In this document: piece by piece, positions 23,201-51,143 of the stretch
Layout of the letters: each line of letters begins with the position of its first letter
Numbering within the stretch: the first letter of the stretch is position 1
Source of the DNA: Thiotrichales bacterium
GTDB taxonomy: Bacteria; Pseudomonadota; Gammaproteobacteria; Francisellales; CACEW01
Assembly: GCA_947478525.1 (NCBI GenBank)
Contig: CANJVU010000003.1
Coordinates: 55,562 to 119,561, forward strand
Direction of reading: 5' to 3'
Length of the DNA stretch: 64,000 bases
The notes under the pieces: model-generated
The model's input: only the letters and a program-made list of their open reading frames with translations
Told to the model about the DNA's origin: nothing
Database searches by the model: none
Program-made: the position numbers and the translations under genes

Positions 23201-24483
23201 GTTCTGGTGAGTTAACCGTTAGTGATAACCATGGTCGTGAGAAAGAGCGTTACAAGATTCCTTATGGTGCTGAGTTGTCGGTAGAAGACCACGCTAAAGT
23301 GAAGGCGGGTACGGTAGTGGCCAATTGGGACCCCCATACCCACCCAATCGTGTGTGAGATTGCGGGTAAAGTGAAGTTTGTCGATTTAATCGATGGCATG
23401 ACCGTACGTCATCAAACCGATGAATTAACCGGTTTGACCAGCATGGTCATCATGGACTCCACGCAACGTTCTGCTGCGGGTAAAGAATTGAAACCGACCT
23501 TGCGCTTGTTGGATGAAAAAGGCAAAGACCTGAACTTCCTCAACAGTAATGTCCCTGCACATTATTTCTTACCTGCGAATGCGATGGTACAAGTACAAGA
23601 TGGTGCAAAAGCCAATATTGGTGACATCTTGGCGCGTATTCCACAAGAAGGGTCGAAAAACAAAGACATTACCGGGGGCTTGCCTCGCGTTGCTGACTTG
23701 TTTGAAGCACGTCGACCTAAAGAGCCTGCAATTTTGGCGGAAGCCAGTGGTTTAATTAGCTTTGGTAAAGAAACCAAAGGCAAGCGTCGTCTGTTGATTA
23801 CCTCGATTGATGGTACGGTAACCGAGTTGTTGATCCAAAAATGGCGTCATATTAACGTGTTTGAAGGGGAGCAAGTGGAGCGAGGCGAAGTGGTCTCCGA
23901 TGGTCCAATGGATCCGCATGATATCTTGCGTTTGCAAGGTGTGAGTGCATTGGCGAGCTATTTGAGCAATGAGATTCAGGACGTTTACCGCTTGCAAGGC
24001 GTTAAAATTAACGACAAGCACATCGAAGTGATTGTGCGTCAGATGATTCGCCGTGTAGAGTTGACATTTGTGGGTGACAGTAAGTTTATCTTGGGTGAAA
24101 TGGCCGATTATGCGAAGGTCAAAGAATCTGCTGAGCGCCTTACCGCGCAAGGTAAGGCAGCGCCAAGGTTTAATCGCCTGTTACAGGGGATTACCAAAGC
24201 GTCGCTATCGACCGAATCGTTTATTTCGGCTGCATCGTTCCAAGAAACCACTCGTGTGCTTACGGAAGCTGCGGTCAGCGGTCGCGTTGATGACTTGTAT
24301 GGCTTGAAAGAAAACGTCACCGTCGGTCGTTTGATTCCTGCCGGTACAGGTATGGCGTATCATTTGATGCGTGAACAGCAACGTGCCGCAGCGCAAACTC
24401 GTCGTCAAGGCCCAACCGCTGAAGAAGTACATAGCGCGTTGAGTGCGGCGTTGACGGATAATGAATCGTCGAAGAAAGAGTAA
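20266..24483 (+). CDS. rpoC: DNA-directed RNA polymerase subunit beta'
   Basis: 1405 aa. Zn motif [20 protein letters not shown] and catalytic NADFDGDQM. Uses a TTG start with SD AGGAG 8 nt upstream (MKDLL...). Confidence 0.99.
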
Positions 24484-49565: not shown

Positions 49566-51143
49566 ATGTCATTACAAGAAGTGCGCGTTCCAGACATTGG
49601 CGAATACAGCAATGTCAGCATTATTGAAATTATGGTTAAGCCAGGCCAAACCATTGCCAAAGAAGCGTCCTTGTTGACGCTTGAAACCGACAAAGCGACG
49701 ATGGAAATTCCCGCACCATTTGCCGGTGTGGTGAAAGAAGTGCTGGTGAAGTTGGGCGACAAAGTGTCGAAAGGCAGTTTGATTTTGAAAATTGAATCAG
49801 AAGCTGCAAGTGCTGCGCCAAAAAAAGAAGTTCCAAAAAATGAAACTGCAAAAACGGCACCCGTGGATGCTGGCAACGTAAAAGAAATCATTGTTCCGGA
49901 TATTGGTGAGTACAGCAACGTTACCATCATTGAAGTCATGATGAAACCCGGTCAGTCCATTGCCAAAGAAGCTTCACTCATCACGCTCGAAACCGATAAA
50001 GCCACCATGGAAATTCCGGCGCCGTTTGCTGGATCCATTGATCAGGTATTGGTAAAAGTGGGGGATAAAGTGTCGAAAGGGTCGAAGATTGCGACGGTTC
50101 AGACTGCCGGATCAAACCCCTCATCCGCTGCTGCGCAGCACCTTCTCCCACAAGGGGAGAAGGGAGTCTCTGCGTCCTTCACCTCTCCCCTTGTGGGAGA
50201 GGTCGAGAAACCGCAGGTTTCGAGGGAGAGGGGTGATTCAATCGCTCACGCCACGCCCGCCATCCGCCGTTTTGCACGCGAATTAGGCGTTGAATTGTCT
50301 GTGGTGTCTGCCTCCGGGCGCAAAGGCCGTATTACCGAAGAGGATGTCAAAAAATTTGTGAAAGGCGTCATGCAGAGCGGTGCAGCGGCAACTGTTGCTT
50401 TGGGCGCTGGACTTGATTTATTGCCAGACCCCGTTGTTGATTTTGCTAAGTTTGGGGACATCGAAACCAAACCGTTATCTCGTATCAAAAAAATCAGTGG
50501 CGCCAATTTGTCTCGCAACTGGGTGCGCATTCCGCATGTTACCTTCTTTGAAGATGCCGATATCACCGATTTAGAAGATTTCCGTGGCACTAAAAAAGCG
50601 GAAGCCGAAAAAGTGGGTGTCAAATTAACGCCGGTGCCATTTATTGTAAAAGCGGTGGCGAAAGCACTTAAAGCCTTCCCTAATGTTAACTCATCATTGC
50701 AAGGGGATAATCAGGTCTTTAAAAAATACATCAATGTCGGTGTGGCGGTTGATACGCCAAATGGTTTAATGGTACCCGTGATTAAAAATGCCGATCAAAA
50801 AGGCATTTATGAAATCGCCAAAGAATTGGCCGGTTTTGCCGCAAAAGCCAAAGACGGTAAATTGACTTCTGCTGATATGCAAGGGGGCTGCTTTACCATT
50901 TCAAGCCTTGGAGGCATTGGTACGCAATATTTCACTCCGATCGTGAATATGCCTGAAGTGGCCATTTTAGGAATCTCTAAGGCCCAAACCAAACCGGTCT
51001 ATGAACAAGGTGCGTTTGTGCCACGCTTGATGTTACCCTTGTCCTTGTCGGTGGATCACCGGGTAATTGATGGCGCGGAAGCCGGTAAGTTTGTAGTGAC
51101 GGTAGCCAAGTATCTGGGTGAATTACGTGAGTTATTGCTGTAA
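49566..51143 (+). CDS. aceF: dihydrolipoamide acetyltransferase (PDH E2) with two lipoyl domains
   Basis: Two LETDKATMEIPAPFAG lipoyl domains, subunit-binding domain ATPAIRRFARELGV and catalytic DHRVIDGAEA. Confidence 0.95.
   Translation: MSLQEVRVPDIGEYSNVSIIEIMVKPGQTIAKEASLLTLETDKATMEIPAPFAGVVKEVLVKLGDKVSKGSLILKIESEAASAAPKKEVPKNETAKTAPVDAGNVKEIIVPDIGEYSNVTIIEVMMKPGQSIAKEASLITLETDKATMEIPAPFAGSIDQVLVKVGDKVSKGSKIATVQTAGSNPSSAAAQHLLPQGEKGVSASFTSPLVGEVEKPQVSRERGDSIAHATPAIRRFARELGVELSVVSASGRKGRITEEDVKKFVKGVMQSGAAATVALGAGLDLLPDPVVDFAKFGDIETKPLSRIKKISGANLSRNWVRIPHVTFFEDADITDLEDFRGTKKAEAEKVGVKLTPVPFIVKAVAKALKAFPNVNSSLQGDNQVFKKYINVGVAVDTPNGLMVPVIKNADQKGIYEIAKELAGFAAKAKDGKLTSADMQGGCFTISSLGGIGTQYFTPIVNMPEVAILGISKAQTKPVYEQGAFVPRLMLPLSLSVDHRVIDGAEAGKFVVTVAKYLGELRELLL
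50136..50235. repeat. GC-rich palindromic REP-like element lying in frame inside the aceF linker
   Basis: A 17-nt perfect inverted repeat, tctcccacaaggggaga (50044-50060) and tctccccttgtgggaga (50184-50200). Each copy also folds into its own 9-bp hairpin. A third hairpin is gaaacc-gca-ggtttc (50206-50220). The feature coordinates bracket the GC-rich core; the first arm starts at 50041. Confidence 0.6.

Follow-up and report, generated by a model that had tools for sequence, protein, structure and literature searches.

Dispersed BoxC/TMECO-like palindromic repeats probably encode an interdomain linker of the pyruvate dehydrogenase E2 protein AceF

The gene aceF, which encodes the E2 component of pyruvate dehydrogenase (PDH), lies within a 64,000-nucleotide (nt) stretch of the genome of a Thiotrichales bacterium that we refer to as the window (GenBank assembly GCA_947478525.1, contig CANJVU010000003.1, positions 55,562–119,561). 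Here we propose that the AceF linker at amino acids (aa) 183–225 is encoded by an inverted, heterotypic pair of dispersed repeat units, a variant of the BoxC/TMECO/PIT family, that was inserted in frame in the manner of the Rickettsia palindromic elements (RPEs) and is now a disordered tether. We give this reading a probability of about 0.85. The source genome, G000, is a 36-contig draft of 2.12 Mb (45% G+C, 99.99% complete), in which the window is C3:55562–119561; positions without a contig refer to the window.

The element is a 128-nt block at 50111–50238, made of two units of about 55 nt in inverted orientation. Read on its C-rich strand, a unit consists of a C-rich box, a small variable hairpin and a 9-bp main hairpin, with the consensus ACCCCTC(A/T)(T/C)CC for the box, followed by the variable hairpin and then CYTCTCCC-ACAAG-GGGAGARG. 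Unit A (type 1; 50111–50169, plus strand) encodes ..SNPSSAAAQHLLPQGEKGV.. (about aa 183–201). Its box (ACCCCTCATCC, 50116–50126, plus strand) mirrors the C-stem of the main hairpin and corresponds to the third block of the triplex motif discussed below; the small hairpin gctgc-tgc-gcagc (50127–50139, plus strand) corresponds to an enlarged ‘loop 2’ of that motif; and the main hairpin ccttctccc-acaag-gggagaagg (50141–50163, plus strand) is a perfect 9-bp inverted repeat with stems at 50141–49 and 50155–63. A spacer between the main hairpins (50164–50180, plus strand) encodes ..VSASF.. and includes a 3′ tail, AGTCTC, that is shared with the copy in carA only. Unit B (type 2; 50175–50238, minus strand) is inverted relative to unit A, and its plus-strand reading encodes ..FTSPLVGEVEKPQVSRERGD.. 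(about aa 205–225). It comprises a second perfect 9-bp main hairpin, acctctccc-cttgt-gggagaggt in plus-strand letters (50181–50203, minus strand; stems 50181–89 and 50195–203), a small hairpin, cgagaaacc-gca-ggtttcgag (50204–50224, minus strand), with a perfect 6-bp core at 50207–12/50216–21, and a box at 50224–50234 (minus strand) that reads GGGAGAGGGGT on the plus strand and is the reverse complement of ACCCCTCTCCC. The two main hairpins, which have 5-nt loops and starts 40 nt apart, face each other and make up a 22-nt inverted repeat with 91% complementarity, leaving the boxes outermost in the pair. Between the types, two stem pairs of the main hairpin are changed on both sides with pairing preserved. 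The small hairpins vary in the same spirit: other copies of unit A have different sequences with pairing kept (for example, ggtgc-ttc-gcacc and ggcgc-tac-gcgcc), and the C14 and C1b copies carry aaacc-ttc-ggttt at the unit B position.

A sequence-only reading of this DNA had described a single unit of about 100 nt containing a 17-nt perfect inverted repeat, with a 9-bp-stem hairpin in each copy and a third hairpin beside them. Both the 17-mer TCTCCCACAAGGGGAGA and an exact reverse complement of it occur, the second at 50184–50200 as described and the first at 50144–50160, 100 nt from where it had been placed (50044–60), and each copy does form the hairpin with perfect stems. The third hairpin, gaaacc-gca-ggtttc, lies at 50207–50221, a fourth (small hairpin A) had been missed, and the single unit gives way to the heterotypic pair. 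Both quoted translations were correct. The block had also been called more GC-rich than its surroundings; its G+C content is indeed 0.62 (50100–50199), compared with about 0.44 in the flanks and 0.45 in the genome, but the rise continues at about 0.58 through the following domain to about 50350, so the raised G+C is not confined to the element.

One alternative is that no repeat element is involved and that the linker is an ordinary one whose dyad symmetry is coincidental. E2 linkers are low-complexity and variable and, among 32 E2 open reading frames (ORFs) in which all perfect GC-rich hairpins are located in linkers, one from Legionella (L022) has a chance-looking hairpin within an Ala-Pro run. 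In AceF, however, two or more matches to the 17-mer, with up to three mismatches allowed, arose in 0 of 100 dinucleotide-preserving shuffles of the window. Moreover, the covariance model R1 recognized both units (unit A, 64.0 bits, E = 1.3e-12; unit B on the minus strand, 68.3 bits, E = 1.2e-13), with an nhmmer E value of 3.8e-14 for unit A. Unit A is 88–90% identical to copies at C22:9978–10028, C32:6501–6550 (in the rpsP–rimM spacer) and C22:15970–16019 (in carA), and unit B is 97.5% identical over 40 nt to an intergenic copy in the rpsB–tsf spacer (C14) and 100% identical over 31 nt to another in C17 (blastn). The unit also occurs in distant phyla. In the light of these results together, the chance of mere coincidence is practically negligible. 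The predicted RNA fold of 50108–50242 (−77.2 kcal/mol) was reached by none of 200 shuffles (mean −49.0 ± 4.3; z = −6.5), and a search of Rfam matched no known RNA family, returning only miRNA-model noise at 15–24 bits against gathering scores of 37–105.

Throughout G000, R1 located nine strong units, distributed over eight loci, as well as partial copies, in agreement with nhmmer. Besides aceF, units lie in C32 (rpsP–rimM spacer), C22a, C14 (rpsB–tsf spacer), C17, C1b, C18 and C4, as located with blastn, nhmmer and the covariance model. Those in the rpsP–rimM and rpsB–tsf spacers, C17 and C1b are clearly intergenic, the C22a copy adjoins a long open frame, and units lie in frame in aceF, carA and a ygfZ-like ORF. 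A short-form sister subfamily, CCCTCCACCCTAAC-CCTCCTCC-GCAAG-GGAGGAGG, adds about 8–10 further copies, nearly all clearly intergenic, with two weak matches overlapping open frames. The expectation of many, mostly intergenic, copies thus held for their location, their number being about 10 to 20. Apart from these, GC-rich hairpins are scarce in the genome, where 151 perfect 8-bp ones were counted.

Beyond G000, units are patchily distributed, occurring in 9 of 19 related genomes. In one of these (G006, another genus), a type 2 unit nearly identical to aceF unit B sits in the aceE–aceF spacer, just upstream of the aceF start (G006:C4:91248–91305; L003:3085–3142). With one genome taken per species, an exact 21-nt pattern was found at 120 loci at least, in Alpha-, Beta- and Gammaproteobacteria, Chloroflexota, Nitrospirota, Cyanobacteria, Deinococcus and others. 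Many Alphaproteobacteria have a type 1 unit that, over its whole length, matches the one here at almost every base; elsewhere short forms lacking the variable hairpin prevail, and inverted pairs are common. Among loci L056–L135, the type 1 units of Bradyrhizobium, Mesorhizobium, Caulobacter, Devosia and Labrys are nearly identical to that of G000, with variation in the loop 2 hairpin only, where pairing is always kept. Such near-identity across phyla points to horizontal spread or very strong constraint. An origin of the intergenic copies from the aceF linker was rejected, given the near-identical units in Alphaproteobacteria, Chloroflexota, Nitrospira, Cyanobacteria and Deinococcus.

The aceF gene itself (49566–51143, plus strand) is an intact 525-codon ORF directly 3′ of aceE. 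Pfam recovers the domain order lipoyl 1, lipoyl 2, E3-binding (the peripheral subunit-binding domain, PSBD) and catalytic, with two Biotin_lipoyl matches, E3_binding at aa 228–262 and 2-oxoacid_dh at aa 298–525, all far above thresholds. The element lies, as first described, between lipoyl domain 2, which ends at about aa 181, and the PSBD, whose coding part (50247–50351, plus strand) begins 2–3 codons past the element and for which AlphaFold places a helix at aa 231–240. The linker between these bounds (aa 181 and 228) is essentially all encoded by the element (aa 183–225), and the native linker was replaced rather than lengthened. Across the order, 29 AceF orthologues have linkers of 35–50 aa that are Ala/Pro/Gln-rich and never resemble this peptide, and R1 detected no unit within their aceF ORFs. 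These comparisons bear out the proposals that an Ala/Pro-rich linker was replaced and that the peptide is specific to this lineage; the best orthologue from a genome is 63% identical, the genomes compared including no other species of its genus.

In an AlphaFold2 model built on a 16-sequence alignment, aa 182–226 have predicted local distance difference test (pLDDT) scores below 50 and no secondary structure, like the native linkers at aa 80–103 and 270–291. Four of the six frames through the pair lack stops, so an open frame alone is unremarkable. AceF unit A, CarA and a SucB protein of genome G018 nevertheless use one common frame, which gives ..HLLPQGEKG and is rich in Pro, Ser, Gly, Glu and Lys, whereas the other frames are rich in Cys, Arg and Trp. 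This shared choice fits selection on peptide character at sites that tolerate a disordered segment. The linker would yield the tryptic peptide GVSASFTSPLVGEVEKPQVSR.

AceF is presumably made and working, because aceF is the sole PDH-type E2 gene of G000 and is otherwise well conserved. An alternative is that aceF is inactivated or decaying around a neutral insertion, or that the block is removed after transcription or translation. Decay has a possible parallel in the unit-bearing ygfZ-like ORF, which looks C-terminally shortened (249 aa, compared with about 290–300 aa in relatives) and may be truncated or decaying. The aceF ORF, by contrast, is full length with its four domains, retains the catalytic DHRxxDG motif, shares 79% identity with its nearest relative when the linker is left aside and follows an intact aceE. 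Removal of the block would leave a tether of about three residues, and neither Pfam nor Rfam showed intein or intron signatures in aceF. We consider inactivation or removal very improbable.

The closest AceF that we found is a metagenomic protein, P0002 (European Nucleotide Archive contig L179), which is 79% identical overall and is devoid of units A and B. One part of its linker is conventional (GSSPASKSPETVAPALATE) and the remainder is encoded by a different inverted palindrome pair, GTCATCCCCGCGAAGGCGGGGATCC ... GGATTCCCGCCTTCGCGGGAATGAC, which lies in frame at about 730–800 and reads ..RVIPAKAGIQ..SRLRGND.. (..RVIPAKAGIQAESVDSVDSRLRGND..). It looks as if two sister AceF lineages each gained, independently, a different palindrome family at the same spot in the linker.

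In-frame palindromes are also present in other genes. In carA (G000:C22:15966–16020, L031), a type 1 unit is read in the frame that AceF unit A also uses and encodes HPSSGASHHLPPQREKGS, and CarA has 15 additional residues between its CPSase and GATase domains relative to orthologues that are 67–71% identical. The ygfZ-like (GCV_T-fold) ORF (G000:C1:248219–248271) contains a decayed type 2 unit, in frame, in a variable loop (DPSPSLRSTSSTGGAVK). In G018, from another genus, a SucB-type E2 carries a short-form unit in frame in its lipoyl–PSBD linker (L180:505–551, that is, G018:C20:8404–8450); the linker reads ..AAAPAVVA-PHPSPLPQGERG-VNAGPAA.. and its DNA matches the TMECO pattern exactly. A second, unrelated palindrome family in G000, GTCATTCCCGCGCAGGCGGGAATCC, has about seven copies, two of which are translated in frame as CHSRAGGNP: one in pheT (G000:C1:185630–185660, L186), where it adds five residues in a β-turn relative to nine orthologues, and one in a 510-aa SIS-like ORF (G000:C8:80605–80635). 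As judged from their reading frames, at least five G000 genes read through palindromic repeats, which agrees with the original suggestion of an RPE-like in-frame insertion.

These parallels bear on whether a repeat-induced chimera or mis-join could have placed the palindromes in aceF. The assembly is a 36-contig draft, and repeats of this family often lie at contig ends in relatives (G011). The block, however, sits 50 kb into a contig of 126 kb, keeps the exact reading frame with no stop, and has the right aceF domains on either side. From a mis-join one would not expect a linker of normal length, and analogous in-frame copies occur in four other G000 genes and in the independent assemblies of L179 and G018 (L180). 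An assembly artefact therefore appears highly unlikely.

RPEs are reportedly small, gene-less palindromic repeats found between genes and in frame within many genes, including essential ones. In genes they occupy surface loops or linkers and add a hydrophilic peptide, with no evident target-site duplication or transposase. The present units resemble them by behaviour only, being palindromes found both between genes and in frame (aceF, carA and the ygfZ-like gene). They differ in their host, which its relatives place in the Legionellales and not in the Rickettsiales; in size (about 55 nt, compared with 100–150 nt for RPEs); in having far fewer copies and a family that spans several phyla; and in their three-block triplex-motif design and associated DUF559 gene.

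On this model, the repeat pair would have entered the linker after the split from the closest known relative, and the native Ala/Pro-rich linker would have been deleted after or during insertion. The pair would be translated in its one hydrophilic frame and serve as a disordered interdomain tether, and the insert would survive because what matters in an E2 linker is its length and flexibility rather than any one sequence. A DUF559 (Vsr-like PD-(D/E)XK) nuclease may have helped the units to move or to be copied through break repair. The sequence shows that the insert is tolerated and that it has replaced the native linker; an added function would go beyond the evidence, and to call the element ‘domesticated’, as had been done, claims too much, because what is seen is tolerance and the absence of other linker residues.

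The element might instead be kept for a function of its own, as a site of ribosome pausing, an RNase or stabilizing site in the aceEF mRNA, or a hotspot of recombination or instability acting through an RNA fold, triplex or cruciform. Both aceF main hairpins are perfect, whereas the carA copy has two mismatches in its main hairpin and the carA and ygfZ-like copies have 2–3 stem mismatches; the exceptional RNA fold (z = −6.5) points the same way. REP-type hairpins affect mRNA decay and translation (background cited in PMC5082802), and TMECO loci show raised local genomic variability and instability (PMC4666352). Recent insertion, however, explains the perfect stems equally well, and no orthologue has a comparable structure at this place except for the unrelated palindrome of L179, and hence nothing conserved is served. 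Earlier work found PIT/TMECO elements to be without promoter or terminator activity (as reported in PMC4666352). We therefore view a dedicated function as unlikely and favour a tolerated in-frame insertion.

Judged by their sequence, units A and B are a variant of the BoxC/TMECO/PIT triplex-motif design and not classical repetitive extragenic palindromic (REP) elements, to which the sequence-only reading had likened them. Comparison of the box with the mirrored C-stem gives agreement at eight of nine positions, not only in units A and B but in every subfamily. A central A-for-T is common to all and corresponds, on the G-rich strand, to a T.A-T triple; a box also agrees more closely with its own stem than with those found in other subfamilies. 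Because the mirror relation holds in every subfamily, units A and B can be ascribed to the BoxC/TMECO design. The TMECO motif, CCCTCNCCC-N3-6-GGGNGAGGG-N3-GGGNGAGGG, has 3610 copies in 262 proteobacterial genomes; in Escherichia coli K-12, all five inverted pairs combine type A with type B, and the elements are ‘always located intergenically’ with no association with mobile elements (Holder et al. 2015, PMC4666352). The strict pattern is matched by the G018 sucB unit and by many of the cross-phylum short forms. Our units share with TMECO, BoxC and PIT the three blocks (C-stem, G-stem and a mirroring second G block), the 9-nt stems, a loop 1 of 3–6 nt, a patchy and strain-variable distribution, and inverted pairs of two types, the aceF pair being type 1 plus type 2. 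They differ in that units A and B have altered stems and, in place of a 3-nt loop 2, a variable hairpin of 14–21 nt; in that G000 units are translated inside genes, whereas E. coli K-12 copies are intergenic; and in that they bracket DUF559 genes, here and in relatives. A full-text literature search found no paper in which the letters of the unit are printed.

Other known families were set aside. A classical REP/REPIN system was rejected in the face of about 10 to 20 copies, the absence of a GTAG or CGTC tetranucleotide tag, by which REPs are defined (PMC3733652, PMC5896051), from all of the units, and the absence of a RAYT gene (Y1 transposase, PF01797), for which the 99.99% complete G000 gave no match and control genomes did. 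The resemblance lies in the short, GC-rich imperfect palindromes and in the inverted doublet with a short spacer, a typical composite, as well as in a small single-copy gene between inverted repeats with gene-less copies scattered elsewhere, as in REP/REPIN–RAYT systems (Nunvar et al. 2010; Bertels & Rainey 2011, PMC3116915). In our units, by contrast, tag and Y1 transposase are lacking, the bracketed gene encodes a PD-(D/E)XK DUF559 nuclease, and copies number in the tens, not hundreds. We also did not adopt a cut-and-paste miniature inverted-repeat transposable element model, there being one clean target-site duplication only (at C18). The aceF pair ends in ACCCCTCATCC ... GGGAGAGGGGT, and its flanks, GGATCAA and GATTCAA, agree only loosely; no transposase is associated with the units, their sole associated gene being the DUF559 nuclease. 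QMITE1 and QMITE2 of Coxiella burnetii, which are 150–400 bp long with direct repeats and, in QMITE2, a GTAG REP (Wachter et al. 2018, PMC5896051), are likewise small non-autonomous repeats of Legionellales that overlap annotated ORFs and can add residues. They were rejected as the family by their differing size, tags and behaviour, as QMITEs mostly alter the 3′ ends of ORFs or add stops and do not form internal in-frame linkers (PMC5896051). Br-REP1 and Br-REP2 of Bradyrhizobium were rejected by their differing consensus sequences.

The association of the units with DUF559 (PF04480) genes is solid. In a 570-bp cassette at G000:C18:2377–2946 (L176), perfect 87-nt inverted arms, built to the same box-plus-hairpin design, enclose an intact gene for a 114-aa DUF559 protein (C18:2514–2858), and the 8-bp direct repeat CTTATTTT occurs beyond each arm; from these features the cassette looks young and is possibly mobile. 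At G000:C17:23542–23835 (L177), upstream of lpdA (E3) and before gltX, a decayed DUF559 C-terminal fragment ends 20 nt before a type 2 unit, with a sister-subfamily hairpin about 80 nt further on (23912–23936). DUF559 ORFs, several of them decayed, lie between a minus-strand and a plus-strand unit in G012 (C23), G002 (twice, C81 and C94), G006 (C13) and G011 (C8), and units bracket such genes in Mesorhizobium (L128) and Sphingomonas (L088) as well. Small DUF559 genes were present in five of eight unit-bearing genomes and none of ten unit-free genomes (Fisher p ~0.007, calculated by hand and ignoring phylogeny). The aceF pair itself contains no DUF559 gene.

Searching 1.84 billion representative proteins with the 43-residue linker peptide, a query not long enough to pick out single in-frame units within real proteins, gave nine matches, all of which were repeat-array ORFs or DUF559 proteins; two were DUF559 proteins whose ORFs extend into flanking translated units. 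In G002, a full DUF559 domain (G002:C82:4374–4688) is found inside a 479-aa open frame, which may reflect read-through of an entire DUF559 cassette within a larger gene. The solved structure nearest to the DUF559 protein is 3HRL, an uncharacterized ‘endonuclease-like protein’. DUF559 is enriched among genes flanked by inversion-type repeats (PMC9881135), beyond which the literature searched held no description of a DUF559-bracketed repeat cassette.

From these associations we infer that DUF559 may have a causal role in copying the units. Units A and B could then be gene-less derivatives, or recognition sites, of an undescribed, widespread selfish system in which a DUF559 (Vsr-like PD-(D/E)XK) nuclease of about 110 aa sits between inverted BoxC/TMECO-type repeats, copies them into new sites and has repeatedly written linkers and loops into essential proteins. 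We offer this proposal tentatively, rating it at somewhat less than an even chance. If true, the DUF559 system would be a counterpart of REP/RAYT with an unrelated enzyme. Such systems would repeatedly write linkers or loops into essential proteins because their units are mostly stop-free and, in one frame, rich in Pro, Gly, Ser and Glu. The lipoyl–PSBD linkers of 2-oxoacid dehydrogenase E2 proteins would be a recurrent safe harbour, with three independent cases. The consistent bracketing of DUF559 genes by units of a Legionellales family lends further, independent support to the idea that this nuclease is the missing partner enzyme of BoxC-type repeats.

Several observations weigh against our reading, either of the linker or of its origin. 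Units A and B do not match the strict TMECO pattern, with stems CCTTCTCCC and ACCTCTCCC and a loop 2 of 14 nt and 20 nt, and the intrastrand triplex has been seen in vitro only and for the E. coli motif only, with no in vivo support (PMC4666352). The copy number is low, at about ten units plus about ten of the sister subfamily. No near-identical empty site was found, the nearest AceF being 79% identical, and at this distance the event is not reconstructable base by base, so that insertion followed by loss is not separable from replacement in one step. No convincing target-site duplication was seen at aceF or carA, nor at five other DUF559-bracketed copies. The arms of the C18 cassette belong to a subfamily that differs from units A and B, and the DUF559 partner proper to those units, at C17, is decayed; the aceF units may be immobile fossils, connected with the nuclease by association only. 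Translation of the block and correct assembly are likewise presumed from the sequence.

If the proposed insertion is correct, BoxC/TMECO repeats can be coding and lie in frame in essential genes, which would extend the RPE phenomenon to another order and another repeat class. AceF would be a clean new example, outside Rickettsia, of repeat DNA read as protein in an essential gene, with the whole tether swapped for a repeat-encoded peptide. Together with P0002 and the G018 protein, it would form a natural experiment on linker tolerance: three independent insertions between lipoyl domain and PSBD, two in AceF proteins of sister lineages, each from its own palindrome family, and the third in a SucB-type E2. 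For annotation, the peptides ..HLLPQGEKG.., ..SPLVGEV.. and ..CHSRAGGNP.. can flag translated repeats.

A further case may lie in aceF of G011 (L030), in which the pre-PSBD linker contains, at about aa 107, a perfect GC-rich hairpin, gggcgaacc-tag-tgttcgccc, that encodes the peptide RGEPSVRP and may belong to a further palindromic family.

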